Positions 34,172 through 48,561 of a DNA stretch of 64,000 bases are shown in pieces (within the stretch, counting starts at the first letter, position 1; every line of letters starts with the position of its first letter). The position numbers were made by a program, and so were the translations under genes. The stretch spans positions 27,913 through 91,912 of the forward strand of contig CAVUYA010000030.1 in assembly GCA_963745575.1 (NCBI GenBank), read 5' to 3'. This DNA comes from an uncultured Actinomycetota bacterium (GTDB lineage Bacteria > Actinomycetota > Actinomycetes > Streptosporangiales > Streptosporangiaceae). A model generated the notes under the pieces. It made no database searches. It was not told where the DNA came from and saw only the letters and a program-made list of their open reading frames with translations.

Positions 34172-34424
34172 CCGCGGAGGCGGCACAGAGGATCGGGCGG
34201 AGCTCGGTGCGGTCGAGTGTAAGAGCCTTGCTGGCCGCGGCGGCCAACTCGTGCCGGACGTGGCGCCTGAGGCTTGTTCTGAGGCGCACCGAGGGCTAAC
34301 AGATCAAAAATCTTTTCGATAAATATTTCTGGTACTGGCCAGATGTGATGGTTTTGTCGGTGCCCATCGATACCGTGGTTAGCGACAAAGTATGACGACC
34401 GGCCTGCGCCGAGGAGGTGAGTCA

Positions 34425-36690
34425 ATGCCGGATCAGGCGCCCGAACCAGGCCAGGACGGCGAGCAGCCCGCCACCTCACCAAGCGGCCAGCACTACCTCG
34501 ACTGGCAGGCGCTGCTGGACGCGCTGGCCGCAGGCGGGCTGCTGGACGGCGACCCGGACGATCAGGACGCCGCCGCGGCCGAGGACGGGCACATAAATCA
34601 GCCGCTGCCGCCCGGGCAAGCGGGGGCGCTGGCGGTCGAGCATATGGCGCCCGGCCCGGTCCAGGCCGGTTGGCTGGCCGCGGCCGCCACTGAGGCGGGG
34701 AGCCTGGATGAGTACGGGCTGGCCGGGGTGGCGATCGCCGCCCGCCAGCTCGCGTCCTGGGCGCAAGCCGCCGAACTATCCGCCGTGGCGCAGATCACCG
34801 CCCGGGCCGCCGCTGCCGACCGCAGGATCGGCCTGCACCCGGATGGGCGGCCGGCGCGGCTGTGCCGCGACGCGGTCGGTCAGGTGAGCCTGGCGCTGAT
34901 GCTGACCGACCACGCTGCGGCCGGCTGGGCTGACCTGTCCATCACCCTGGCCTGGCGGCTTCCCGAGACGGGAAGGGCGCTGGCGGCCGGGACCATCGAC
35001 CTGGCCCAGGCGAAGGTGATCGCCGAGACCACCAGCGTGCTGTCCGAGAACACCGCCCGCATGGTCGAAGATGCGGTCTTGCCCGACGCCGGACGGCAGA
35101 CCACCGCGCAGTTGCGGGTGCGGGTGCGCCGCGCGGTGATCGCCGCCGACCCGCAGGCGGCCGAGCGGCGGCGGGAAGAAGCCGAGCGGCAGGCCAAGGT
35201 GAGCCTGTACCCCGGTGACGACGGGACCGCGACGCTGGCCGGTGCCGGGTTACCCGCCGTGGAGGCGGCGGCGGCGATGGCGCGGATCACGGCGATCGCC
35301 CGGGCGATGAAGGCGGCCGGGCAGGGCGGCGGTCTGGACCTGCACCGGGCCAGGGTGATGCTGGGCCTGCTGCTGGGCACCCTGCCCTACATCCCCCCGC
35401 CCGGCGGCGCCCCCGAACCCGACCCGCCGCCCGGCGCTGATGACAGCCCGCCCGGCGATGGACCCGGCCCCGGCCCCGGTGGTCACCTCGCCGGCAGCGG
35501 CTCCGGCGGCCACGACCGGGGCGGCGGGCCTGAGGACAGTGGCCCTGGCCGCAGCTCCGGCCGCGCACCGTGGGACGACCCGCCCGCCCCGCGCGATGAG
35601 GACGCCCCAGACGACGACGCTCCGGATGAGGACGGCCGCGATCACGGCGGCGACCCCGGCGACGGCCCGGATGACAGCCGCGAGGACGGCGAGGATGACT
35701 GGCCCGGGACCGGGCCGGTACCGCCATGGCCAGGCCTGGGCGCGATCCCGCCCCCGCTGGCCCGCCCCCGTCCCGCCGGCGGGCGGCCCGCGCCAAGGCT
35801 GCTGGACCTCACCCTGCCCTGGGCCACCCTGGCCGGACACTCCGCCGCGCCCGGGCTGCTGGGCCGCATCGGCCCGATCACCGCCGTCCAGGCCCGACAG
35901 CTCGCCCACGCCGCCCAAGCCGACCCGGCCGCCCAGTGGCGCATCATCGTCACCAACCCCGCCGGGCAAGCCATCACCGTCACCCGCATTCCCCGCCGCA
36001 GCCGCGACGGCCCCGCTCCGGCCCGCGCCAGTCCTGGCCTGGCCCGCGATGGCCCTGGCCCGGCCCGTGATGGCTCTGGCCCGGCCCGTGACCGCCCCTG
36101 GCCTGCCGCGCCGGCCCGGATGCCGACCGCGGAAGCGCGCCCGGCGCCGGACTGGTCGGCCGCGTCACCCTGACCATCACCCAGGACACCCTCACCAGCC
36201 ACCAGCAGGCAGCCGACCCGAGGCCACCCGCCGGGACAGCCAGGCCCGGACCACCCGCCCGGGCAGCCAGGCCCTGACCACCCGCCCGGGCAGCCTGACC
36301 CGGACCACCCGCCCGGGCAGCCAGACCCGGACCACCCGCCGACATCACCGCCATGGCACTGCACGCCGCCGCCCGCGCCCTGCACACCGCCCTGGCCCAG
36401 GCCCGCGCCGACGCCGCCGCAGGCGGGTGCGCCCACCATGCCCGGTCCGATGCCTACCGGCCCCCGCCGCGGCTGCGCGAGCAGGTCACCGCCCGCGACC
36501 TCACCTGCCGCCACCCGGCCTGCCGCCAGCCCGCCTGGCGCGCCGACCTCGACCACACCCGCCCCTGGGAAGACGGCGGCCCCACCTGCACCTGCAACCT
36601 CGGCGGCGCCTGCCGCCGCCACCACCAGCTCAAGCAACACCCCCGCTGGAACCTCCGGCAAACCCGCCCCGGCCACTTCACCTGGACCAC
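34425..36690 (+). pseudogene. DUF222 / HNH endonuclease (REP13E12-type), 5' part; interrupted by the serine-recombinase element and internally disrupted
   Basis: GGAGGTGAG RBS plus ATG 34425. DUF222 core (LSAVAQITARAAAADRR...IDLAQAKVIAETTS...). Frame change near 36140. In-frame TGA at 36275 and 36296. HNH part DLTCRHPACRQPAWRADLDHTRPWEDGGPTCTCNLGGACRRHHQLK. Native sequence ends at ...FTWT(T) at 36690. Confidence 0.8.
36222..36340. repeat. 27-nt tandem repeat (about 4.5 units) inside the DUF222 gene
   Basis: Units GGACCACCCGCCCGGGCAGCCAGGCCC at 36222, 36248, 36275, 36302 and 36329 (the last partial). Two variant units create in-frame TGA codons. Confidence 0.8.
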
Positions 36691-36736
36691 CTTGGCTAGA
36701 ACTGTATTACTCACACTTTGCGGGTAGACTCATGGC

Positions 36737-38188
36737 ATGAGCAAGACCCCAGGTCAGCAAGGCCCCATCGACATCTACGCCCGCGTTTCCCGCAAGGGTG
36801 ACAAGCGGCAGCAGAGCACAAGCGGGCAGGTAGGCGCCTGCCGCGCGGTTCTGGCCGAGCGCGAGCTACCCGCCGGCGAGACCTTCATCGACCCCGGCCT
36901 GTCAGCGTGGAATCCCAAGGTGACGCGGCCCGACTGGGACGCGCTCATGGCGCGGCTGGAGAGCGGCGCGTCGGCCGGGGTCATCGTGTTTGACCTTGAG
37001 CGGTTCGCGCGCCGGCCCGCCGATGGCGAGCGGCTGATCGCTGCGGCTGAGCGTGGCTTGCTGGTGCTGGACTCCGACGCAGAGTTTGATCTTTGCTCCG
37101 CGAGCGGCAAGAAGGCATTCCGCGACGCGATGAACGCAGCGGCGTACTACTCCAACCGGCTGTCCGACCGCGTCAAGCGCGGGAAGGCAGCGAAGGCACG
37201 CAACGGGCAGGTTGACCGGGCCGGCTGGCAGGATCGCCCGTTCGGGTGGGAGCCGGACGGCATCACGCAGCAGCCGGCCGAGGTGAGCATCCTGCGCGAG
37301 ATCGCGCGCCGTGTCCTCGCCGGCGAGTCGCAAGACGTGATCGCGCTTGACCTGAACGGCCGGGGGGTCACCACGACGCAGGGCAAGCCATGGCAGGCCA
37401 CGCGCATCCGTGAGCTACTTCTCCGCGAGCGCAACCGGGGCAACCTTGAGCACTGCGGCGTGATCGTCGCGAAGCTGCCCGGGGAGCCGGTCATCGACTC
37501 CGCGACGTTCGACCGGCTGAGCGCGAAGTACGCCGCGCGGCGCGCGGGCCGGCCCTACACCCGCACGTACCTCGCCAGCGGCGCGGCAATATGCGCGGTC
37601 TGCCGGCTGGCGCTGACCGGGCGCCCGGTGCCGCGACGGCGGCCCTACCCTGACGGCTCGGTCGCGCGAGAGTACCGGTGCTGCAAGAAGGTCGGCACCG
37701 CTGCGTGCGGGACGGTCGCCATAGACCAGCGAGCGCTCGACGCCGCCACGCGGGAACTGGCCATCGCCATCCTGTCCGACCCGCGCCACGCCGCGCAGGT
37801 CGAGGCCGCCGCGGCCCGGCACATCGAGGAGGCAACCGCGCTCGACAGCCTGATCGCCGAAGCGGAGACGACCGCGCTACAGATCGGCGACCGGCTCGGC
37901 CGCGGCGAGATCACCCTGGCCCGTCACGACACGATCATGGGCCCGCTCGACGCGCGCCTGGCGGACCTGCGCACGAAGCGCGAAGCGCTCAACGGCGGCC
38001 CGGCCGAGCCGTTGCCCGCAGCGCAGTCGCGCGCCGAGTGGGCGGCACGGTGGGACGCCGCCGAGCCCGCCGAGCGCCGGACCCTGCTGGCGATGGCACT
38101 GCGCGGCCGGATCCTGGTCGTCGGCACGGCCGACCCCTCCGAGCCCGCGAACGTGGCGCGCAGGCTCAGCATCGGGGACCGGCCATGA
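36737..38188 (+). CDS. Large serine recombinase (integrase)
   Basis: 483 aa. Resolvase-type N-terminus IDIYARVSRKGDKRQ (catalytic Ser), recombinase domain, Cys-rich zinc ribbon (CAVCRLALTG...CCKKVGTAAC) and a C-terminal coiled coil. Confidence 0.9.
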   Translation: MSKTPGQQGPIDIYARVSRKGDKRQQSTSGQVGACRAVLAERELPAGETFIDPGLSAWNPKVTRPDWDALMARLESGASAGVIVFDLERFARRPADGERLIAAAERGLLVLDSDAEFDLCSASGKKAFRDAMNAAAYYSNRLSDRVKRGKAAKARNGQVDRAGWQDRPFGWEPDGITQQPAEVSILREIARRVLAGESQDVIALDLNGRGVTTTQGKPWQATRIRELLLRERNRGNLEHCGVIVAKLPGEPVIDSATFDRLSAKYAARRAGRPYTRTYLASGAAICAVCRLALTGRPVPRRRPYPDGSVAREYRCCKKVGTAACGTVAIDQRALDAATRELAIAILSDPRHAAQVEAAAARHIEEATALDSLIAEAETTALQIGDRLGRGEITLARHDTIMGPLDARLADLRTKREALNGGPAEPLPAAQSRAEWAARWDAAEPAERRTLLAMALRGRILVVGTADPSEPANVARRLSIGDRP

Positions 38189-38514
38189 GCGGCCCGTCCT
38201 ATGTGGAGCTGGAGATCCTGTGCGAGCGCTGCGAGCGCGCGGGAAGGCGACGCAGGCTCGCGCTGTTCGGCTCCTACACCTACCCCGGCGCCGACCGTAC
38301 CCCGTGGGAGCAGGGCCGCCGCTACGGCGGCGCGAAGGTGCGCTCGCTGTGGTGGGGACCGGACGGCAACGACAAGGTCAAGCTCTCCTGCGACGGCACC
38401 GACAGCGGGCGGGGATGCCAGAACATGCCCGACATCACCCGGGCGTGGGTGATCGAACAGCTCGCCGAGATCTGGGCGCCGGACAGCCGCGAAACCCGGA
38501 CCGTGCTGCGGTAG
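38185..38514 (+). CDS. Hypothetical protein (Cys-containing, 109 aa)
   Basis: ATG 38185 overlaps the integrase stop (ATGA). MSGPSYVELEILCERCERAG... In frame with the tail of track ORF 37678-38514. Confidence 0.5.
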   Translation: MSGPSYVELEILCERCERAGRRRRLALFGSYTYPGADRTPWEQGRRYGGAKVRSLWWGPDGNDKVKLSCDGTDSGRGCQNMPDITRAWVIEQLAEIWAPDSRETRTVLR

Positions 38515-38619
38515 GGTGATCGCAGCCACAACGGCATAGGCCGCCGCGGAGGGCCGGACCCGCGGACATGCGCACCTCGGCGGGTGACGCGAGAATCTCG
38601 TGTCCCGAGGTGCTGCCAG

Positions 38620-38883
38620 ATGGCCGCCAAGTCCAAGACCCGCCGGACTATCTCCGGCAAGATCGCCGCCATCGAGCGGCACAACGGCCCCGGTGATCCC
38701 CGCCTGGACCCGCTGAAGATCGCCGGAGCCGCGCTGGCCATCGCCGAGATCGCCGAGTGGGCCCGCTGCGCCGCCGCGGCGCTGCCCGTGTTCGACCAGG
38801 CCGAGATCGACGCCGCGGGCCGCGCAGCCGCCAAGATCGACGCCAGGCGCGCCCGCAAGGCGGCCGGCAATGCGGCCACCTGA
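38620..38883 (+). CDS. Hypothetical protein
   Basis: MAAKSKTRRTISGKIAAIERHNGPGDPRLDPLKIAG... within track ORF 38584-38883. No recognisable motif. Confidence 0.4.
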   Translation: MAAKSKTRRTISGKIAAIERHNGPGDPRLDPLKIAGAALAIAEIAEWARCAAAALPVFDQAEIDAAGRAAAKIDARRARKAAGNAAT

Positions 38884-39136
38884 CAACAAGGCGGGCCGCC
38901 CCCGGCAAGGACGGCCCGCAACGTCAGCCCCGGCGACGGCGCTCGACGCTCTCACCGTACCGCGCGAGCTGGCGGCGTGGCGCTGCTGGACGCACCGGGC
39001 CCGGCACGCATGCGGGTGCGGCCGGGCGGCCGACTGCCTGCTGAACGACCCGCTGCCCGTGCACGCGCCGCAGCCTTGCGCCGGCCAGTTCGGCGAGGAC
39101 GGCCGCTGGCGGGCGCATTGCCGGGCCGCGTCGTGA
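38870..39136 (+). CDS. Hypothetical Cys-rich small protein
   Basis: 88-aa ORF with high third-position GC by eye. Stop overlaps the next GTG start (GTGA 39133-39136). CWTHRARHACGCGRAADC...C...C. Confidence 0.35.
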   Translation: MRPPDNKAGRPRQGRPATSAPATALDALTVPRELAAWRCWTHRARHACGCGRAADCLLNDPLPVHAPQPCAGQFGEDGRWRAHCRAAS

Positions 39137-39537
39137 CCGGCTGGTGCGCCGCACCCGGGTGCGGTAACCATCTGCCCCCGCGCAGGCGCCGGTTCTGCTG
39201 CGACCTCTGCCGCATCCGCGGGCAGCGGGCCGAGAACCGCACCGAGAACGGCGATTTCGGCCGGGCCGCGATCCGCATGATCCGCGCGATGGCCAGGCGC
39301 GTCGGCGCGGCCGACATCGCGGAGTTCGGCGCCATGTGGGAGGTCATGACCGAGGCCGAGCGCGCGGTAACCGACACGATCGACGGCCTCCAGAAGAGCG
39401 GCTACTCCTGGTCCCAGATCGGCGCTGAGATCGGCTGGAGCAAGCAGCGGCTGTCCCAGTGGAGGCAGCGCCGGGGCGCGGTCCAGCGTAAACGGACCGT
39501 TGACGCCGGGCCGGCGGGAACAGGTGACCCGGCATGA
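39133..39537 (+). CDS. Zn-ribbon plus HTH DNA-binding protein
   Basis: VTGWCAAPGCGNHLPPRRRRFCCDLC (CxxC..CxxC), then KSGYSWSQIGAEIGWSKQRLSQWRQ (HTH-like). Confidence 0.5.
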   Translation: MTGWCAAPGCGNHLPPRRRRFCCDLCRIRGQRAENRTENGDFGRAAIRMIRAMARRVGAADIAEFGAMWEVMTEAERAVTDTIDGLQKSGYSWSQIGAEIGWSKQRLSQWRQRRGAVQRKRTVDAGPAGTGDPA

Positions 39538-39749
39538 CCGGGTGCGCCGACTCCCGCGGCGACGGAGAGACCATGCTGGCGCGGGCCGAGCGGACGGCCA
39601 GGGGCGCCCGGCTGTTCCGCCAGATCGCTGATGACGCCGAGGCCGAGGTCGTACGCGCGTACGACCGGTGGAAGGACGCCGAGGCCAGGGCCGACACTGC
39701 CGAGGACGAGGCGCGCCGGGCCGCTGCTGCGCTGGACGGTGCGGCATGA
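39534..39749 (+). CDS. Hypothetical small helical protein
   Basis: 71-aa ORF, ATGA-coupled at both ends (39534-39537 and 39746-39749). Confidence 0.45.
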   Translation: MTGCADSRGDGETMLARAERTARGARLFRQIADDAEAEVVRAYDRWKDAEARADTAEDEARRAAAALDGAA

Positions 39750-41329
39750 CCGGCCGCCCCGGGCACTGCCTCGCGCCAGCGGGCAAGGACTGCTGGCTCG
39801 GGGCCTGCGCCTGCCCGGTGCCGGAACCCGCGTACGACCCGGGCCCGCTGCCGCTGGCCGGGTCGGGCGGCGCGGAGCTGCTCGATGAGGTCGCCGCGTT
39901 CCTAGAGAGCTACGTCATCTTCCCGGGCCGCCACGCCGCCGCCGCGGTGGCGCTGTGGGCCGCGCATACCCACCTGGTGAGCCGGTTCGAGAGCACGCCC
40001 CGGCTGGCGCTGCTGTCACCGGAGAAGCAGTGCGGCAAGTCCCGCGTGCTCGAGCTGCTCGAGCTGCTGTGCGCCGGGGCCGAGACGCTCTCCGACGCCA
40101 GCCCCGCCTACCTGTACCGGCGGATCGGTGCCGGGTCGGTCACCATCCTGCTCGACGAGGCCGACGCGATCTGGAAGCGCGGCAAGGCCGACGAGACCGC
40201 CGAGGCGCTCCGCTCGGTCGTCAACGCCGGGCACCGCCGGTCGGCGACGGTCGGCCGGGTGGAAATGAGCGGCGTCACGGCGAACCTCGTCCGCTTCCCG
40301 GTGTACGCCCCGGCCGCCATCGCGGGCATCGGCAGCCTGCCCGACACGATCCTGGACCGGGCCGTGATCCTGCGCATGCGGCGCCGGGCACCGGGCCAGC
40401 GGATCCGCGGCTACCGGGAGCGCACCACCCGGCCGCAGGGCGAGGCGCTGCGGGACCAGCTCGCCAAGTGGGCCGCGGACGTGGCCGACCGCGTCGGCGA
40501 CCCGTGGCCCGACATGCCGTCCGGCGTGGCCGACCGCCCGGCCGACGTATGGGAGCCGCTGCTCATGGTCGCCAGCCTCGCGGGCGGCGGCTGGCCGAAA
40601 CGGGCCGCCGAGGCATGCGCCGCGTTCGTCGCCGACGCCAGCCACGACACCGAGACCGCGGGCACCCGCCTGCTCGCCGACCTGCGCGACGTGCTCGGCG
40701 GCCAGGACGAGCTGTGGACCGGCGAGATCCTGTCCGGACTCCACGCGCTGGACGAGTCGCCGTGGGGCGAACGGTACGGCCACCCGCTGACACCCCGTCA
40801 GCTGGCGAAGCTGCTCAAGCCCTACGGCGTGACCTCAGCGCAGGTCCGCAAGGGCGAGGTGAACCGCCGGGGCTACCGGCGCAGGGACCTGCGCGACGCC
40901 TGGCAGTCCTACCTGCCCCGGGCAGCCGCTACAGCCGCTACAAGCGCTACCGGCCTGGCCAGCGCAGTAGCGGACGTAGCGGCTGTAGCGGACACCCCGG
41001 CGGCGTGCACGGTGTGCGGCAATCCGCTTGACCCGGCGCTCGCCGGGCTCGGCGACACCACGCACCCGATGTGCGACCCCGAAGGAGAGACGACAGTGAA
41101 GCTTTCCAGCCAGCCGCCCGTCAACAAGCTTCTCAGGTCCCAGCCGGGCCGGGCGCGGGCCGGCCAGTGCCGGGCCTGCCTGCTGGTGACTGATGACCTG
41201 CGCAACGGGCTCTGCCGCGACCGTGCCGCATGCGAGGCGCGCCAGCCGGCCCTGGACCTCGGCGCCGAGGTGAAGCCTGGCGGCAGCTTCGGGCACCCGG
41301 ACGCTTCGGACAGCGCGGATGGCTCATGA
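39746..41329 (+). CDS. DUF3631-like ATPase (putative replication/primase-associated protein of actinobacterial prophage-like elements)
   Basis: 528 aa from MTGRPGHCL. FLESYVIFP...ALWAAHTHL, deviant Walker A EKQCGKS, Walker B TILLDEADAIW, NAGHRR. C-terminal CxxC clusters. Confidence 0.6.
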   Translation: MTGRPGHCLAPAGKDCWLGACACPVPEPAYDPGPLPLAGSGGAELLDEVAAFLESYVIFPGRHAAAAVALWAAHTHLVSRFESTPRLALLSPEKQCGKSRVLELLELLCAGAETLSDASPAYLYRRIGAGSVTILLDEADAIWKRGKADETAEALRSVVNAGHRRSATVGRVEMSGVTANLVRFPVYAPAAIAGIGSLPDTILDRAVILRMRRRAPGQRIRGYRERTTRPQGEALRDQLAKWAADVADRVGDPWPDMPSGVADRPADVWEPLLMVASLAGGGWPKRAAEACAAFVADASHDTETAGTRLLADLRDVLGGQDELWTGEILSGLHALDESPWGERYGHPLTPRQLAKLLKPYGVTSAQVRKGEVNRRGYRRRDLRDAWQSYLPRAAATAATSATGLASAVADVAAVADTPAACTVCGNPLDPALAGLGDTTHPMCDPEGETTVKLSSQPPVNKLLRSQPGRARAGQCRACLLVTDDLRNGLCRDRAACEARQPALDLGAEVKPGGSFGHPDASDSADGS

Positions 41330-41416
41330 GCGCAAGCCGCGCCAGCCAGGCGCCAGCCAGCGAGCCGCATGGAAGGCCGCACTCGCAGCAGACGGCCAGG
41401 GGCCCTGGGCCCGCGC

Positions 41417-41584
41417 TTAGCTGCCGCTAGGCGGCGCGTGGCCCATCGCGGCGATGCTAAGCGCGTCCTGGGGTTCCCGGGCCCGTGAGCAGTTCATGAG
41501 AATCGGGCCGAGCCACATGCCTACCGCTAGCGAAACACCGAACCAGGCGACAAGGCCGATCGGCACCCACCACCATGCATTCAT
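41417..41584 (-). CDS. Small one-TM protein (55 aa)
   Basis: GGGAGAAGG RBS. MNAWWWVPIGLVAWFGVSLAVGMWLGPIL...APPSGS*. Paralogous in layout to 41792-41953. Confidence 0.45.
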   Translation of the reverse strand: MNAWWWVPIGLVAWFGVSLAVGMWLGPILMNCSRAREPQDALSIAAMGHAPPSGS

Positions 41585-41791
41585 GCCCGCCTTCTCCCGC
41601 CTGGGCTGCCCATGAAATATCGCACGTTTGCCGTCCGCTTGTCGTTCACTTGCACGACGGCTCGGTCGGCCTGTCAAGGCGCAGGGCCCGCCCGTGGGCC
41701 CACGTCCCCCGCTGGCGCCGCGACCTCCACTACACCGGCCGGCACTCAGGCGACGCGGCACAGTACACAGCCAGGCGCCCTGCCGCGCGGT

Positions 41792-41953
41792 TTAGCTGTC
41801 ACTGGGCGGCTGCCCCTCCCGGGGCGGCTTTCGGCGCCTGGCGCGTTTCTCCGGGTGCCGCAAGAGCGCCCAGCCAAGCACCAGCCCGGCCGCTACCGCG
41901 GGGGCGAGCCAGGCGGCGGCCAAGCCGGTCAGCACCCACGACCACGGGCTCAT
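41792..41953 (-). CDS. Small one-TM protein (53 aa)
   Basis: MSPWSWVLTGLAAAWLAPAVAAGLVLGWALL...QPPSDS*. High GC3. Same N- and C-terminal pattern as 41417-41584. Confidence 0.4.
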   Translation of the reverse strand: MSPWSWVLTGLAAAWLAPAVAAGLVLGWALLRHPEKRARRRKPPREGQPPSDS

Positions 41954-42379
41954 CCCTAACCCCAAGCGGCACATCCGGACACTCGCCGTGCCCTCTACCG
42001 AGAACACGACCAGCCATGCCGATCCGTTACGGCCGGACGCCGCTACGGGGCCCCTTACGGCACGCGCTCGCACCGGGGCCGGTACCACACCGACCGGCAG
42101 ATGGCACACCAGACGGCGCACACGCAGAGTGACCACGGTCGGCCACCACCACCCCGGCACCCGGACCACCTCCCGGTCGGCACCCGCCTGCCACCACCCC
42201 GGGCGGACACCCCGCCGGGAAACCCGCAGGTCAACGAATCGCGCTGCGCGAAACGGGCATTTCTATGGCTGCCCGGTCAGCTAGATGTCCTGTGCCGGCC
42301 TGAAACAGAAAAACGCGGAACGATCTTGGATACGGCCGTGACTCTGGGTTACCGCTCGCCGGGGTCCTAGCCTGGGAGG

Positions 42380-42739
42380 ATGAGCGTCCCGAGGGCGCCC
42401 GCGGGCATGGGCCCGGCCGGGCGCCGGCTATGGCGTGAGGTGCTCGCGGATTTCGAGCTCGGCGGCCACGAGCAGCTGATCCTGGTCAACGCGTGCCACG
42501 TCGCCGATACCTGCGCGGCGCTGCAAGAGGTGATCGCGGCGGACGGGCCGATGCTGACGGACCGGGAGGGCGGCCCGCGGACGCATCCGGCGTGCCGGGA
42601 GCTGCGGCAGCAGCGGATCACCCTGGCGCGGCTGATCGTGTGCCTGCGCGTCCCGCTGGGCGACGAGGACGCCGGGGGAGACCGGTCGCAGTACCGGGGG
42701 ATGCGCGGAGCGTATGGGCTGCGGGGCGAGGCGTCGTGA
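42380..42739 (+). CDS. Possible P27-family phage terminase small subunit-like protein
   Basis: GGGAGG RBS. 119 aa. The pattern G..LW.EV...ELGGHEQLILVNACHVADTCAALQEVIAADG....D..GG.R.HPACRELRQQRITLARL resembles P27-type TerS. Recognised by eye only. Confidence 0.4.
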   Translation: MSVPRAPAGMGPAGRRLWREVLADFELGGHEQLILVNACHVADTCAALQEVIAADGPMLTDREGGPRTHPACRELRQQRITLARLIVCLRVPLGDEDAGGDRSQYRGMRGAYGLRGEAS

Positions 42740-42954
42740 GGCGCCGCCGGCCGCGGGAGGCGCCCCCGCCGTGGCTGGACGAGTTCGACCCGGATGCGTG
42801 GTCGGATGCGTCCGATGCCGGGTACGCGCCGGGCGTCCGGGATTACCGCGCCGGGTGCCGGTGGAACGATGCGGTCAATGAGTGGCGGCGGGTGCATGGC
42901 TGGCGGCCGGGGGAGCTGGCTGCGTTGCTGGCGTCACTGGGCGAGCCGGTGTGA
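42736..42954 (+). CDS. Hypothetical protein (VRRRRP... paralog 1)
   Basis: GTG 42736 overlaps the upstream stop (GTGA). VRRRRPREAPPPWLDEFDPDAW... Confidence 0.45.
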   Translation: MRRRRPREAPPPWLDEFDPDAWSDASDAGYAPGVRDYRAGCRWNDAVNEWRRVHGWRPGELAALLASLGEPV

Positions 42955-43256
42955 GGCGCCGCCGGCCGCCGGGGCCGCCGCCGCGGATCGAGCCGCCGTC
43001 CTGGTACAGGTCCTTCGACCCGGCGATGTGGGATGAGCCGGGCCCGCAGGAACTGGCGATGATCGAGGGCAGCTGGCGGCACTGGCCTGAATGCGCTGAC
43101 GGCAGCCCGGAGTGGCTGGAGTTTCACGAGACCCATGCCCGGCGCCGCTGGGAGCTGGCCCGGTACGCCTACCGGCGGAAGCATCCGGACTTGGCCGAGC
43201 AGGAGTTCGCCGAGATCCAGGCCCGGCGCGCGGAGAGACGCACGCAGGATTTGTGA
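42951..43256 (+). CDS. Hypothetical protein (VRRRRP... paralog 2)
   Basis: GTG 42951 overlaps the upstream stop (GTGA). VRRRRPPGPPPRIEPPSWYRSFDPAMW... The first 19 nt are identical to those of 42736. Confidence 0.45.
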   Translation: MRRRRPPGPPPRIEPPSWYRSFDPAMWDEPGPQELAMIEGSWRHWPECADGSPEWLEFHETHARRRWELARYAYRRKHPDLAEQEFAEIQARRAERRTQDL

Positions 43257-43272
43257 AACGGCCAGTACACTA

Positions 43273-43467
43273 ATGCGCATGAGCACTGCTGATGCGGCGC
43301 GGGCCGAGCAGGCCAGCCACGCGGCCCGGGCGAGGTGGGAGCGGGAGGGCAACCCGGTTCTCACCCGGTCGGTGCAGGTCGTTGTCACCCGCGCTGATGA
43401 GCTCACCGACAGCCAGCGGGCCGAGCTCGGGGCCGCGATCACCGAGGAGGCACCCGATGGGGTTTGA
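43273..43467 (+). CDS. Hypothetical small protein
   Basis: MRMSTADAARAEQASHAARARWEREGNPVL... tail of track ORF 43135-43467. Confidence 0.4.
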   Translation: MRMSTADAARAEQASHAARARWEREGNPVLTRSVQVVVTRADELTDSQRAELGAAITEEAPDGV

Positions 43468-43933
43468 AGCACTGGAGTTCTTGCGGGCAGCCGGTGGCGA
43501 CCCGGACCCGGCCGGTTCCCGCCTGGACCGGGCGGCAGCAATGGAAGCCATTGAGGACGCCGCGGAGGCCCGGCAGGCTGAGCGACGGCGGGCCGAGGCC
43601 GAGGAACGCCAGGAGGTCCGCGCGCTGATGAATCGCCAGTGGGGCGATCCGCTGGGACAGATGCGCATGGCGCAGGCCGACATGGTGAACCTGTCCGACC
43701 GGGTGAGCGACCTGCGGGACCAGCTGGCGAAAGCCGAGGACCGCCTGGACCGGGCGCGTTCCAATCTCACCTTCTGGGCGGAACGCGGCCTGCTGGCCGA
43801 GGAAGCCACGCGGCGCAGCTACCCGAACCCGGTGGAAGCCGCAGTGATGCGGGCGGCTGACGTAGCGCGGGAAATCCACGAGAACCGCGACATCCTCGAA
43901 CGGGCACGGCGGGCGGTGCGCCATGGCCATTGA
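43457..43933 (+). CDS. Hypothetical coiled-coil protein
   Basis: MGFEALEFLRAAGGDPDP... with long charged heptad-like stretches. Overlaps its neighbours by 11 nt at each end. Confidence 0.45.
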   Translation: MGFEALEFLRAAGGDPDPAGSRLDRAAAMEAIEDAAEARQAERRRAEAEERQEVRALMNRQWGDPLGQMRMAQADMVNLSDRVSDLRDQLAKAEDRLDRARSNLTFWAERGLLAEEATRRSYPNPVEAAVMRAADVAREIHENRDILERARRAVRHGH

Positions 43934-44132
43934 CCGGTACGCGCACGCCCCGATGGAGGGCGCAGCCGCGGCGGCGAAGGAGGCCGCGGCGCGGCAGGTC
44001 CAGGCCGACCTGGACAGCGACCTCCATTCGGCGGAGGTCCAGGCGGCTCACACCGGCAGGCCCACCCCGGCGCAGGCGGTAGCGCGCGGGGTCACTCCCT
44101 CAAGCGGCAGCGGCAGCGGGACCGCGGCCTGA
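43923..44132 (+). CDS. Hypothetical small protein
   Basis: 69-aa ORF MAIDRYAHAPMEGAAAAAKEAAARQ... Confidence 0.35.
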   Translation: MAIDRYAHAPMEGAAAAAKEAAARQVQADLDSDLHSAEVQAAHTGRPTPAQAVARGVTPSSGSGSGTAA

Positions 44133-44226
44133 CAGACGTCCCCGCAGCGGGTTACTGCCTCCGGCCGGGGACGAGCACGGCACCCCGTTCTTGCTGGCGG
44201 GGTGCCGTTGCTTCTCGCGCTGCGTG

Positions 44227-44542
44227 CTACTCGCCGCCGAGGTACTGACGGCGGAGCCGCTGGCATGCGGCAAGGTCGCGCTCCAGTGCCACAATCCGCT
44301 CGTCCGCGGCCTCGCGGGCGGTGATCTCACCGGAGTCCTCGCGCTCGCGGATGCTGCGCAGGAACGCGTCGAGCCGGTCGTCCTCGGCCCCGATCTCGAT
44401 GTAGTAGCGCGTGTGCTGCTGTCTCCTCCTCCTCCTCCTCCTCCTCGCTGCCGGGCGGCAGGCACGGGCCGGATATCCAGCCTCCTATGTCACGTCTGAC
44501 GTTCGGGTCGGGCTGGTCGGTGGGACGATCTTCTGTAGCCAA
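44227..44542 (-). pseudogene. Hypothetical acidic protein with (Glu)8 tract; frame change next to the trinucleotide repeat as assembled
   Basis: Frame of ATG 44542: MATEDRPTDQ...GSEEEEEEEE. The protein-like continuation QQHTRYYIEIGAEDDRLDAFLRSIREREDSGEITAREAADERIVALERDLAACQRLRRQYLGGE* is in another frame that has no start codon. (CTC)8 at 44423-44446. Confidence 0.4.
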
Positions 44543-44627
44543 GGGGTTCCTCCTTGGTCAGGGCCCGGGTAGCGGCGTTCGCGCGCCGTCCGGGCCCGCC
44601 GCTATCTGCGGCAACTCGCAGACTACG

Positions 44628-44650
44628 CCTAGCATGCTTGCCATGCTAGG
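44628..44650. promoter_or_regulatory. Candidate operator palindrome in the divergent promoter upstream of the GntR gene
   Basis: CCTAGCATG-cttgc-CATGCTAGG (9-bp perfect inverted arms). A third CCTAGCATG half-site at 44683-44691 sits directly before GTG 44697. Confidence 0.4.
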
Positions 44651-44696
44651 CATGACCTGGATAGGTAGCACTGCCTGGCACACCTAGCATGATCAT

Positions 44697-44948
44697 GTGG
44701 AGGTCGACCCTCACTCTAAGGAGCCGTCCTACGCCCAGGTAGCGCGGCAGCTTCGCGAGCAGATCATGTCTGGCGAGCTTGGCCCGCGGGATCAGCTGCC
44801 GTCGCTCAAGCGCCTCATGCAAGAGACCGGGCTGGCGCAGGGCACGGTGCAGCACGCGATCCGGGTGCTGGAGGCGGAGGGCATCGTCTACACCGTCAGC
44901 GGGCGCGGGACGTTCGTCGTGCCCGAGGACCAGCGGCCGGGGCGCTGA
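44697..44948 (+). CDS. GntR-family winged-helix regulator (DNA-binding domain only, 83 aa)
   Basis: PSYAQVARQLREQIMSGELGPRDQLPSLKRLMQETGLAQGTVQHAIRVLEAEGIVYTVSGRGTFV. Confidence 0.85.
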   Translation: MEVDPHSKEPSYAQVARQLREQIMSGELGPRDQLPSLKRLMQETGLAQGTVQHAIRVLEAEGIVYTVSGRGTFVVPEDQRPGR

Positions 44949-44999
44949 CGGTACGGACACGCGAGCACGGGGCAGCGCGCCCATCGCTCAGCCGCGCGC

Positions 45000-45308
45000 T
45001 CAGGGTCGCTCATCTTCCGCGCGATCCTGGCCGCGTTTGACGAGCGCGGCATGTAGCTCTTGCCTGGCACGTGTCATCCGGCTCAACTCTCGGCGCAGTA
45101 TGCCGTGGAGCGAGTCAAGGTCAGCGAGGACTCGGCCGGCCATGTCTGCTGCTTCGGCCACGTAGCCAGCAGTGTCGGTGTCGGTCCGTTGGGCTAGCGC
45201 GTTCAGCGAGTCTTCAAGATCCGCCGCAAGATCGGATAGCCGCTCAACTTCCGCTAGCTGCGCTTGCATCCGGACTAGCGGGACGCACGGCCCGGTACCG
45301 GTGGTCAT
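45000..45308 (-). CDS. Hypothetical coiled-coil protein
   Basis: 102-aa acidic helical ORF. No motif recognised. Confidence 0.4.
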   Translation of the reverse strand: MTTGTGPCVPLVRMQAQLAEVERLSDLAADLEDSLNALAQRTDTDTAGYVAEAADMAGRVLADLDSLHGILRRELSRMTRARQELHAALVKRGQDRAEDERP

Positions 45309-45317
45309 GCGGCCAGG

Positions 45318-45512
45318 CTATGCCGCTTCCGACCGGATACGTGCGGACCATGCGAGCGGCCCCGGTCGCTCGCGCTGGACGGCGCAGAGCAGGTGGACCC
45401 ATCGCCCGGTGCTGACCAGCCGGCCGATTCGCTGGCCTGCCGTGACCGGGCCGCCGCATGCTGAGCAGACCGAGCTACGCCGCGCTTTCATCACGCGATC
45501 ACACGTGATCAT
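45318..45512 (-). CDS. Hypothetical small Cys-containing protein
   Basis: 64-aa ORF with CSACGGPV...LLC. Last ORF before attR. Confidence 0.35.
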   Translation of the reverse strand: MITCDRVMKARRSSVCSACGGPVTAGQRIGRLVSTGRWVHLLCAVQRERPGPLAWSARIRSEAA

Positions 45513-45616
45513 GCGTCAAGGTTACTTGACAAGTGATCTTCGCCCCGAGGGTACGCGCGTACCGTCCGGGCTAAGCTGACAGTGTGGCCAGGGTGTGTGT
45601 AAATAATCCAAGTCGA

Positions 45617-45667
45617 ACTCCCGCCGGGCGTACCTACACCACCGGCCCCGACACCCACCCCGTGTAG
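45617..45667 (+). pseudogene. 3' remnant of the split DUF222/HNH gene
   Basis: ACT CCC GCC GGG CGT ACC TAC ACC ACC GGC CCC GAC ACC CAC CCC GTG TAG = TPAGRTYTTGPDTHPV*, the expected conserved C-terminus following ...FTWT at 36688. Confidence 0.75.
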
Positions 45668-45710: not shown

Positions 45711-45814
45711 GGTAGGACACGCCGGTAGGACACGCCCGTAGGACGCGCCCCTAAGACACGCCCCTAAGACACGCCCCTAAGACACGCCCCTAAGACACGC
45801 CCCTAAGACACGCC
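45711..45814. repeat. 13-bp tandem repeat, 8 contiguous units
   Basis: GGTAGGACACGCC x2, CGTAGGACGCGCC x1, CCTAAGACACGCC x5. Starts 44 bp after the HNH stop codon. Confidence 0.9.
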
Positions 45815-45967
45815 CGATGCTCCCAGCCACTCCCATGTATCGGTAGCGCGGTTCGGCGCTCTTATCGGTAAGGGCTCTCGCAGCCCGATGCAGCTTGACG
45901 TGGTTGACACGGCCCGGCACACGGCCCTGGGGCGGCCGACGGGCCCGGCTTTGAATGGGGGCTGGTT

Positions 45968-47311: not shown

Positions 47312-47380
47312 GATCGCCCCTAGATGCCGCTGCGTCTCGGGCCCGCCCTCCGCGAGACGCGGGGTTCCGGCCGGGCACTA

Positions 47381-48541
47381 ACCAGGATGAACTCGTAGAG
47401 ATCAGGCCGTGGCGTCGGGCGTGCGCTTGTCGTATGACGGAAGCATGCGGTATGCGCAGCGGGGCGGGTACACGCCCGCCGAGCAGCAGCGGCGGGAGCG
47501 GCTGCGGCTGCGGGCAGCTGAGCGGTTCGCCCGCGGAGACGGGATCAGCGAGATCGCGCGGGACCTGCGAGTCACCGAAGGGTCGGTGCGGCGGTGGCGG
47601 CGCGCCTGGCAGGACGGCGGGATGGAGGCGCTCAGGTCCAGAGGGCCGGTGTCGCGGGAGAAGCTGAGCGCGCAGCAGTGGGCGCGGCTGGAAGCCGAGC
47701 TGAACCGGGGGCCGCTGGCGCACGGGTTCGCCGGGGACCAGCGGTGGACGCTGGGCCGGATCAAGACGCTGATCGGCAAGCTGTTTCATGTCGGGTACAC
47801 CGTCGAGGGCACCTGGAAGCTGATGCGCCGGCACGGCTGGTCGGCCCAGGTCCCGGTGCGCCAGGCGCTCGAACGCGATGAGGAAGCGGTGGCGGTGTGG
47901 AAGGCCGAGGTGTGGCCGGATATAAAAGCGCCGCGCGCGACCTGGGCGCCTGGATTTGCTTCGAGGACGAGGCGGGCCAGGGGCTGAGGCCGCCGAAGGG
48001 ACGCACCTGGGCCCGGCGCGGGGCCCGGCCGGTGGTGCGGGTGCGCGGCGCGGGCGGCGGGCGGGTCAGCATCGCCGGGGTGGCGTGCTACCGGCCCGGG
48101 GACCGGCCGCACCTGTTCTACACGCTGCGCGTGTACCGCCGCCGCAAGGGCGAGGCCAAGGGCTTCACCTGGAGCGACTACCGGGACCTGATCATCGCCA
48201 CCCACCGGGGGCTGTCCGCCCCGCTGATCTGGTGCTGGGACAACCTCAACATCCACCTGGCGCCGGAACTGGCGGACTTCGCGCAGGAGAATCAGGCCTG
48301 GCTGCGCATCTACCGGCTGCCCGCGTATGCGCCCGACCTTAATCCGGCGGAGGGGATCTGGTCACTGCTCAAGCGGGCCATGGTCAACTTCGCCGCCGCC
48401 GACCTGGACGGCCTGGTCCGCATCGTCAAGCGCAAGCTGAAGAAGATCCAGTACCGGCCCCACCTGATCGCCGGCTGCCTGGCCGGTACAGGCCTGAGAA
48501 TCGAACCCTGGTAACCATATGCACTACGAGTTCAATCTGGT
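47381..48541 (+). mobile_element. IS630-family insertion sequence (1161 bp)
   Basis: Terminal inverted repeats ACCAGGATGAACTCGTAGAG (left) and ACCAGATTGAACTCGTAGTG (right, reverse complement), 17 of 20 identical. Flanking TA at 47379-47380 and 48542-48543. Intergenic insertion. Confidence 0.85.
47445..48514 (+). CDS. IS630-family transposase produced by programmed -1 frameshift (orfA 47445-47987, orfB frame to 48514)
   Basis: orfA MRYAQRGGYTPAEQQRRERLRL... has the HTH. The orfB frame gives AARDLGAWICFEDEAGQ...CWDNLNIH...PAYAPDLNPAEGIW (DDE). Slippery ATAAAAG at 47922-47928 joins ...WPDIK to KSAARDLGAW. Confidence 0.85.
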
Positions 48542-48561
48542 TAGGCCATCGTAGAAGCCGG

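Follow-up and report, generated by a model that had tools for sequence, protein, structure and literature searches.

An integrated element of 8,928 bp lies on the forward strand of a 64,000-nucleotide (nt) stretch of DNA from an uncultured Actinomycetota bacterium (assembly GCA_963745575.1, contig CAVUYA010000030.1, positions 27,913 to 91,912; hereafter termed the window), where it separates the last codons of a DUF222/HNH gene of the 13E12 type from the remainder of that gene. The element occupies positions 36692-45619, with boundaries that are ambiguous within a 2-nt core, and begins with the gene for a large serine integrase (LSI, also termed large serine recombinase, LSR). Its insertion is confirmed by an empty orthologous site, and a comparison of related loci indicates that targeting of this codon is real and conserved in the integrase clade. 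It is quite probable that the element represents an integrative island resembling phiRv1 and the phage-inducible chromosomal islands (PICIs), and that strand exchange took place at the dinucleotide in the dyad centre of its attachment site, attP. A sequence-only reading of the window had placed the exchange 3 nt further to the left, at an AC dinucleotide shared by the left and right junctions (attL and attR).

The empty site and related elements

A metagenome contig that encodes the homologous protein P0001 (L026) contains the same gene without an interruption, and exactly 8,928 bp distinguish the window from it at this point. On the upstream side, a divergent MerR gene and the DNA upstream of it are 92-98% identical between the two contigs, while on the downstream side the DNA after the gene is 95% and the next gene 89% identical. 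The intact orthologue and the target gene of the window share 85.9% of their nucleotides, and the window flanks abut in L026 with an alignment overlap of 3 nt. The 3' remnant on the attR side is contiguous with the target gene both in L026 and in a second intact gene, that of P0002 (L025), and can be assigned to the same gene, as had been assumed in the sequence-only reading. That the junctions were created by an assembly chimera, or by homologous recombination between two element-bearing DUF222 paralogues, is highly improbable. DUF222 genes are multi-copy and similar to each other, and the unequal cores described below would be natural if the two ends differed in their history. However, one and the same contig matches both flanks in gene order across several genes (MerR upstream, the same open reading frames (ORFs) downstream), the element has the size found in four relatives, and its gene order from the integrase to a GntR-type gene is that of the family.

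Contigs were recovered for another 13 distinct elements with integrases that share 66-79% identity with that of the window. All 13 are located directly after a truncated DUF222/HNH tail, in the same codon and register as in the window, and share an attL layout consisting of TGGACNAC, 22 nt, the motif ACACAT(C/T)TGCGG and the integrase start. In four of them (L001, L004, L012 and L030) both junctions are present on one contig, giving element sizes of 8,572-9,152 bp. The claim that an LSI-encoding element inserted site-specifically into the 3' end of a DUF222 gene is therefore upheld by both the empty orthologous site and the 13 related elements.

More distant relatives, with integrases that are at most 65% identical, mostly reside in other target genes, including L019 and L020 (64-65%) as well as L006, L007, L009, L021 and L023 (52-57%). 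A scan of genome contigs with a single integrase query yielded four loci of 52-54% identity, all in other target genes, and a scan of viral contigs with the integrase alignment gave no matches. The elements whose integrases are 52-65% identical (L006, L007, L009 and L019-L023) possess similar P' arms (…TAAGCTACA…) in combination with different target genes, one of which is common to L007 and L009 and another to L006, L021 and L023.

Attachment sites and the point of strand exchange

In the following, positions are numbered with the C of the AC dinucleotide as 0, so that position 36690 of attL corresponds to position 45618 of attR. The sequences given in the sequence-only reading are correct: attL reads TGGACCACCTTGGCTAG at 36683-36699 and attR reads CAAGTCGAACTCCCGCCGGG at 45609-45630. 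The AC dinucleotide is found at 36689-36690 and at 45617-45618, with a spacing of 8,928 bp. An exchange at this position would imply an empty site, attB, of the form ...TGGACC-AC-TCCCGCC and an attP of the form ...CCAAGTCGA-AC-CTTGGCTAG. In favor of this register, AC is the sole dinucleotide common to both junctions exactly at the switch between host-like and element-like sequence, and only one difference from the orthologous attB results, a synonymous C/T change at +1 in a region where orthologues differ by about 6%. The bases TT that follow in attL would then be ordinary attP sequence, also in the related element L017. Contrary to what had been stated, AC is not the only dinucleotide that the junctions share; GC at +5/+6 (36695-36696 and 45623-45624) is common to both as well.

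The empty site argues for a different register. The attB of L026 reads …CACTTCACCTGGACC AC C CC CGCCGGGCGCACC… (...TGGACC AC C CC CGCCGGG), and L025 is identical to it through +6. Consequently, attL matches attB up to and including the C at +1, while attR matches attB from +2 onwards and carries a T at +1. With an exchange at AC, this T would be a host base and attB would contain the codon ACT, but L026 shows the opposite, which disfavors the AC register. Both intact genes read ACC-CCC rather than ACT-CCC at this point. The reconstructed attB 15-mer (TGGACCACTCCCGCC) was found in none of the 33 loci fetched; both intact genes contain TGGACCACCCCCGC instead. Indeed, the T at +1 of attR is present in all five elements in which attR was available and appears to be a conserved attP base; as a host base, it would create a rare ACT codon.

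A second line of evidence comes from the symmetry of attP, which was deduced by joining the left part of attR to the right part of attL and was scored for dyad symmetry over 24 nt on each side. The deduced attP spans about 50 bp and consists of two 12-nt outer inverted repeats (consensus TGTGTAGTAAAT and ATTAACTACACA) that are 26 nt apart, plus additional inner symmetry. With the centre at +2/+3, 15 of 24 positions are symmetric in the window, 15 in L001, 16 in L004, 18 in L012 and 14 in L030, while all other centres score 3-12 in the four elements that were scanned across centres. Compared with random positions in the same loci, these scores are significant in each of the five elements (P <= 0.004). 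The AC dinucleotide is 3 nt off this dyad and scores 9 of 24 in the window. The short inverted arms that had been described for attP (CCAAG and CTTGG) are present in the window, but they are not conserved among the relatives, and their centre falls 5 nt left of the dyad common to the family.

The four relatives with both junctions provide a third line of evidence. At their dyad centre, attL and attR both read CC, whereas at the position corresponding to AC, all four have AC in attL and GT in attR, which makes an exchange at AC impossible in these elements. A serine recombinase dimer cleaves its site symmetrically with respect to the dyad, which places the crossover on the CC of the proline codon. 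Taken together, the exchange point is most likely the dinucleotide at 36692-36693 (TT in attL) and 45620-45621 (CC in attR), 3 nt to the right of AC, with the position of cleavage deduced from sequence comparison. A match of 2 nt is expected by chance in 1 of 16 cases, and given a dyad-centred crossover, the shared AC is such a coincidence within a variable part of the P arm. We therefore consider the base-precise AC crossover decidedly unlikely.

An exchange at the second shared dinucleotide, GC, would likewise splice in frame and would yield an attB encoding WTTLAGRTY. However, positions +2 to +4 of attL (TTG) would then be of host origin, which creates three mismatches to the CCC of the orthologous attB. 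Furthermore, in the 116 homologues whose tail could be read, W-T-T is followed by proline in 112 cases and by leucine or phenylalanine in none. The relatives show G/T or A/C mismatches at +5, and the position again misses the dyad by 3 nt, this time on its right. This crossover is contradicted by the empty site and was rejected; we regard it as hardly credible.

Based on these comparisons, attL can be delimited to 36670-36719 and is composed of a host B arm up to 36691, the core TT (36692-36693) and an element-derived P' arm (36694-36719) with the outer repeat ATTACTCACAC; besides the empty site and the dyad analysis, this assignment is based on the identical register of the 13 other attL junctions. 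The attR site (45594-45641) comprises the P arm (45594-45619) with the outer repeat TGTGTAAATAAT, which is collinear with those of L001, L004, L012 and L030, the core CC (45620-45621) and the host B' arm from 45622. Both sites are given in forward orientation. As judged from these sequences, attP and attB share only CC(G), i.e., 2-3 bp, plus scattered positions, and the combination of a dyad-armed attP of about 50 bp with an attB that has little in common with it beyond the central dinucleotide corresponds to what defines LSI attachment sites.

Unequal cores and the fate of the element

While the four relatives have identical central dinucleotides in their two junctions, those of the window differ: attL has TT, whereas attR has CC, as does the orthologous attB. 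Among all 14 attL junctions, the core reads CC in 11 cases, TT in two (the window and L017, which equals L031) and TC in one (L010). The two TT elements are not sisters: the identity between their integrases is 66%, and for both of them closer relatives exist that carry CC.

In the model that we favor, the integrase would recombine the attP of about 50 bp with the stretch of a DUF222/HNH gene that encodes its conserved tail, W-T-T-P-x-G-R-x-Y, and serves as attB; strands would be exchanged on the axis of the attP dyad, at the CC dinucleotide of the proline codon. Following integration, the attL core would have changed from CC to TT by two C-to-T changes, which is the favored origin of the TT and would have occurred in a former CCGG context. 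Decay of the target gene, by one frameshift and two stops, could have taken place after the insertion or already before it. Serine recombinases do not religate mismatched cores (PMC11722253). Given the TT and CC cores, excision by attL x attR recombination is consequently predicted to fail, and the element of the window would be locked in place.

An alternative explanation would retain the exchange at the dyad centre and assume an attP with the core TT that underwent a rare, mismatched integration into attB with CC, after which the heteroduplex cores segregated upon replication. For the bottom-strand daughter, this scenario predicts TT in attL and CC in attR without any later mutation, and the attL core variants (TT twice and TC once) could reflect a polymorphism of the attP core. 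On the other hand, it contradicts known biochemistry, the closest relative (L027) has CC next to a nearly identical P' arm, the reciprocal pattern of CC in attL and TT in attR occurs in no element, and the attR core is CC in five of five cases. Overall, we judge a mismatched integration to be rather unlikely.

In a wider sense, the unequal cores may have an origin other than random decay. Satellites could recurrently become fixed by core mutations that abolish excision, or this integrase clade could integrate across mismatched central dinucleotides. We put this forward as a speculative possibility with a small but appreciable chance of being correct. If true, mismatch-tolerant integration would break the rule known from phiC31, Bxb1 and SPbeta.

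The integrase

The integrase gene (36737-38188, forward strand) starts 47 nt past position 0 and encodes an apparently intact protein of 483 amino acids (aa). Its catalytic domain (residues 13-158) matches Pfam PF00239 Resolvase (E = 1.1e-17) and is followed by a match to Pfam PF07508 Recombinase (E = 5.3e-9); the protein is also assigned to PHROG 95, "integrase" (2e-64). In an alignment of 17 sequences of the clade, S18, R16 and four cysteines (C286, C289, C315 and C324) are invariant, and the integrase of the window retains every clade-invariant residue. The AlphaFold model places beta strands at residues 284-330 and subsequent long helices at 349-418, in the expected order of domains. Its top Foldseek matches extend over the full length of the protein and are SPbeta (9dxh, 2e-13), Bxb1 (9iu2) and phiC31 (9rah). 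Judged by sequence and predicted fold, the protein thus appears to possess the hallmarks of the LSI family: a catalytic domain with its serine, a recombinase domain and a zinc ribbon with an embedded coiled coil.

At the sequence level, the closest integrase of a cultured phage aligns with 70% of the protein at 31% identity, and a sequence search of the PDB produced only weak matches that were confined to the catalytic domain. A scan for promoters and terminators around attL and the integrase gene found none.

The target gene

The 5' part of the target gene (34392-36691, forward strand) belongs to the DUF222/HNH (13E12-type) family, as indicated by a Pfam DUF222 match (E = 1e-10) in the protein of the ORF at 34392-36173, by its homologues and by the orthologue in L026. 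The 3' remnant (45620-45667, forward strand) encodes …PAGRTYTTGPDTHPV followed by a stop codon. Splicing of the flanks yields ...HFTWTTPAGRTYTTGPDTHPV* and restores the conserved C-terminus …FTWTTPAGRTYTT.PDTHPV, as proposed from the sequence alone; the tails of homologues end with …RPGHFTWTTPAGRTYTT(S/G)PDTHPV, and the final 25 residues of the spliced protein agree fully with those of P0002. A search with the composite protein retrieved hundreds of full-length homologues, which are 680-780 aa long; the best of them are 65-76% identical.

Locally, the spliced gene is indeed uninterrupted, as had been claimed, but further upstream it is not. A 21-nt coding repeat array (36002-36103, forward strand) contains an insertion of 59 nt near 36077 relative to the orthologue, which breaks the frame, and three-frame translations compared with intact homologues show that the true reading frame switches from 0 to 2 near 36100. 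A second array of 27-nt coding repeats (36208-36340, forward strand) is 54 nt longer than in the orthologue and contains in-frame TGA codons at 36275-36277 and 36296-36298, in a region that homologues read through in frame 2. Frame 0 was considered as the true frame within this array and was ruled out by the intact homologues, which makes the two TGA codons real stops. The target gene of the window is accordingly classified as a pseudogene by its sequence, with one frameshift and two stops. Both types of repeats encode linkers rich in Pro, Gly, Ala and Arg, and their copy number varies among orthologues and paralogues; the frameshift and the stops of the window arose within them.

In two related loci, L002 (7633-9966) and L003 (4819-7203), the truncated DUF222 gene that precedes attL has remained open as a single long reading frame, called at 777-794 aa. 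These undecayed genes suggest that the insertions in L002 and L003 are younger than that of the window.

The sequence-only reading had placed the insertion inside the HNH domain. The tail of the target protein contains the motif C..C…DH…N…HH, and plasmid-borne homologues bear the annotation "HNH endonuclease signature motif containing protein." However, the Pfam HNH match is below threshold (E = 0.13) and stops about 19 residues before the junction. By this comparison, the insertion point is located in the conserved tail after the HNH motif and not within it.

Gene content of the element

Downstream of the integrase, all genes recognized in the element are encoded on the forward strand. They include a conserved ORF of 99 aa without a family match (38584-38883; tblastn matches in L010 (76%), L028 and L001), followed by a helix-turn-helix (HTH) DNA-binding protein of 186 aa (38977-39537) that matches PHROG 686 (E = 1.3e-6), weakly resembles HTH_23 and is conserved in L001, L028 and L029. 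A protein of 553 aa (39668-41329) carries a Pfam DUF3631 domain (E = 3.6e-56); its homologue in L027 combines DUF3854 with DUF3631, and a primase/helicase-like role in replication is inferred from its sequence. Further downstream, a small-terminase-like protein of 119 aa (42380-42739) matches PHROG 1496, "terminase small subunit" (E = 5.9e-16), and is conserved in L029, L028 and L004. An ORF of 213 aa without a family match (43292-43933) shows a high G+C content at third codon positions and a 38% match in L029. The last conserved gene before attR encodes a GntR-type winged-helix regulator of 83 aa (44697-44948; Pfam GntR, E = 4.8e-17) and is found in the same position in L001, L004, L012, L028, L029 and L030. 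A search against NCBIfam gave no specific names for proteins of the window.

The gene content suggests a PICI-like phage satellite rather than a phage. Among the relatives, L001 additionally carries a capsid gene and an HNH gene, and the remaining cargo is variable, as exemplified by an extra tyrosine integrase in L002 (12056-13243), a RelA/SpoT-domain gene in L030 (5005-5790) and a DUF4258/DUF2283 gene pair in L004 (6745-7280). Between the GntR-type gene and attR, a cluster of palindromes is found at 45501-45580, including GATCATGCGTCAAG and CTTGACAAGTGATC and a 24-nt hairpin at 45533-45580. This cluster may represent an operator or an origin.

Neighboring DNA

A tandem array at 45716-45815, just past the target gene's stop codon, comprises 7.7 copies of a 13-nt unit (GACACGCCCCTAA). 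The corresponding spacer of L026 is 56 nt shorter and does not contain the array. Further downstream, an insertion of the IS630 family of insertion sequences (47379-48545) is absent from L026. It consists of two overlapping ORFs (HTH_33/HTH_23, then DDE_3) and is bordered by terminal inverted repeats of about 19 bp (AACCAGGATGAACTCGTAG…) and an apparent TA duplication.

Discussion

Several observations weigh against the interpretation preferred here. A TT/CC pair of cores is unexpected for a canonical serine integrase product and demands two extra changes, whereas an exchange at AC, viewed on the window alone, requires only one. The recurrence of TT in L017 and the TC in L010 are not accounted for by random mutation. 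In addition, attB has no clear dyad at any of the centres scanned, and a scan of viral contigs for the attP arms, intended to find free attP, returned a single chance match of low G+C content. The integrase model reaches a mean predicted local distance difference test (pLDDT) score of 66.7, which corresponds to moderate confidence only. Finally, the copy in the window has no detectable capsid gene and includes several stretches with a weak coding signal, so that its assignment as a satellite is based on few genes.

The closest known parallel is phiRv1 of Mycobacterium tuberculosis, which is located within a REP13E12 repeat (PMC9317374), measures 9.3 kb and has the 12-bp repeat GGTTGGCCGTGG at both ends (PMC3986857). 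In strain H37Rv, the partial REP13E12 gene Rv1587c adjoins the integrase gene Rv1586c on the same strand (PMC1931498). Both phiRv1 and phiRv2 have been described as PICI-like (PMC10654092). The element of the window is similar in its size (8.9 kb), its LSI and its insertion into a 13E12/DUF222 ORF of a multi-copy family. Its integrase gene (from 36737) adjoins the truncated 5' part of the target gene (to 36691) on the same strand, as Rv1586c does with Rv1587c, and its content is phage-like without amounting to a full phage. In contrast, phiRv1 has a 12-bp common core, while attP and attB share only CC(G) here, and the hosts are a mycobacterium and an uncultured actinomycete with about 73% G+C, respectively. 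The 12-mer is absent from the junctions of the window, and its lone match there, with one mismatch, is at an unrelated position (14189). Rv1586c, which was absent from the collections searched, is not among the best 120 integrase homologues listed, all of which are at least 47% identical. The likeness shown here concerns architecture, size class and target family, and the proposal of a strategy shared with phiRv1 holds for the target family and the gene arrangement but not for the att sites.

Presumably, the phiRv1 core is situated a few codons further into a differently worded mycobacterial tail (…HLDHGQPR…), which we treat as a lead and not as a result. A search of a plasmid collection for mycobacterial DUF222 tails gave four matches, all of them non-mycobacterial, and in the literature searched, no link of DUF222 with an integrase or attB was found.

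In comparison with characterized LSIs, the domain order (catalytic domain, recombinase domain and zinc ribbon with embedded coiled coil) is that of phiC31, Bxb1, SPbeta, A118/LI and TP901-1. Further common features are an attB located in conserved coding sequence and an attP of about 50 bp whose dyad arms surround a non-palindromic central dinucleotide. The differences are a very low sequence similarity and the fact that no recombination directionality factor was identified for the element of the window. PICIs and capsid-forming PICIs (cfPICIs) resemble it in their size of about 9 kb and in their predicted gene content, which combines a terminally located integrase gene with regulators, a replication gene of the primase type and a gene for a small-terminase-like protein. 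The copy in the window deviates from them by lacking a recognizable capsid gene and by encoding an LSI. Classical PICIs mostly use tyrosine integrases.

For the localization of crossovers, these results show that a dinucleotide shared by one attL/attR pair is insufficient to place the exchange point of a serine integrase, as a chance AC misplaces it by 3 nt in the present case. This misplacement was revealed only by the empty site, the dyad of attP and the related elements. The integrase/att pairs of the clade could serve as new orthogonal tools for actinomycetes of high G+C content.

The elements described here belong to a known kind, within which they form a new clade of at least 14 members with a deducible attP of about 50 bp and a deducible attB. 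Many landing sites are available to them because the tail motif is held constant by selection at the protein level and the target genes belong to a multi-copy family. The strategy of phiRv1, in which a serine integrase satellite resides in the tail of a multi-copy DUF222/HNH gene, is thereby extended to uncultured soil actinomycetes.

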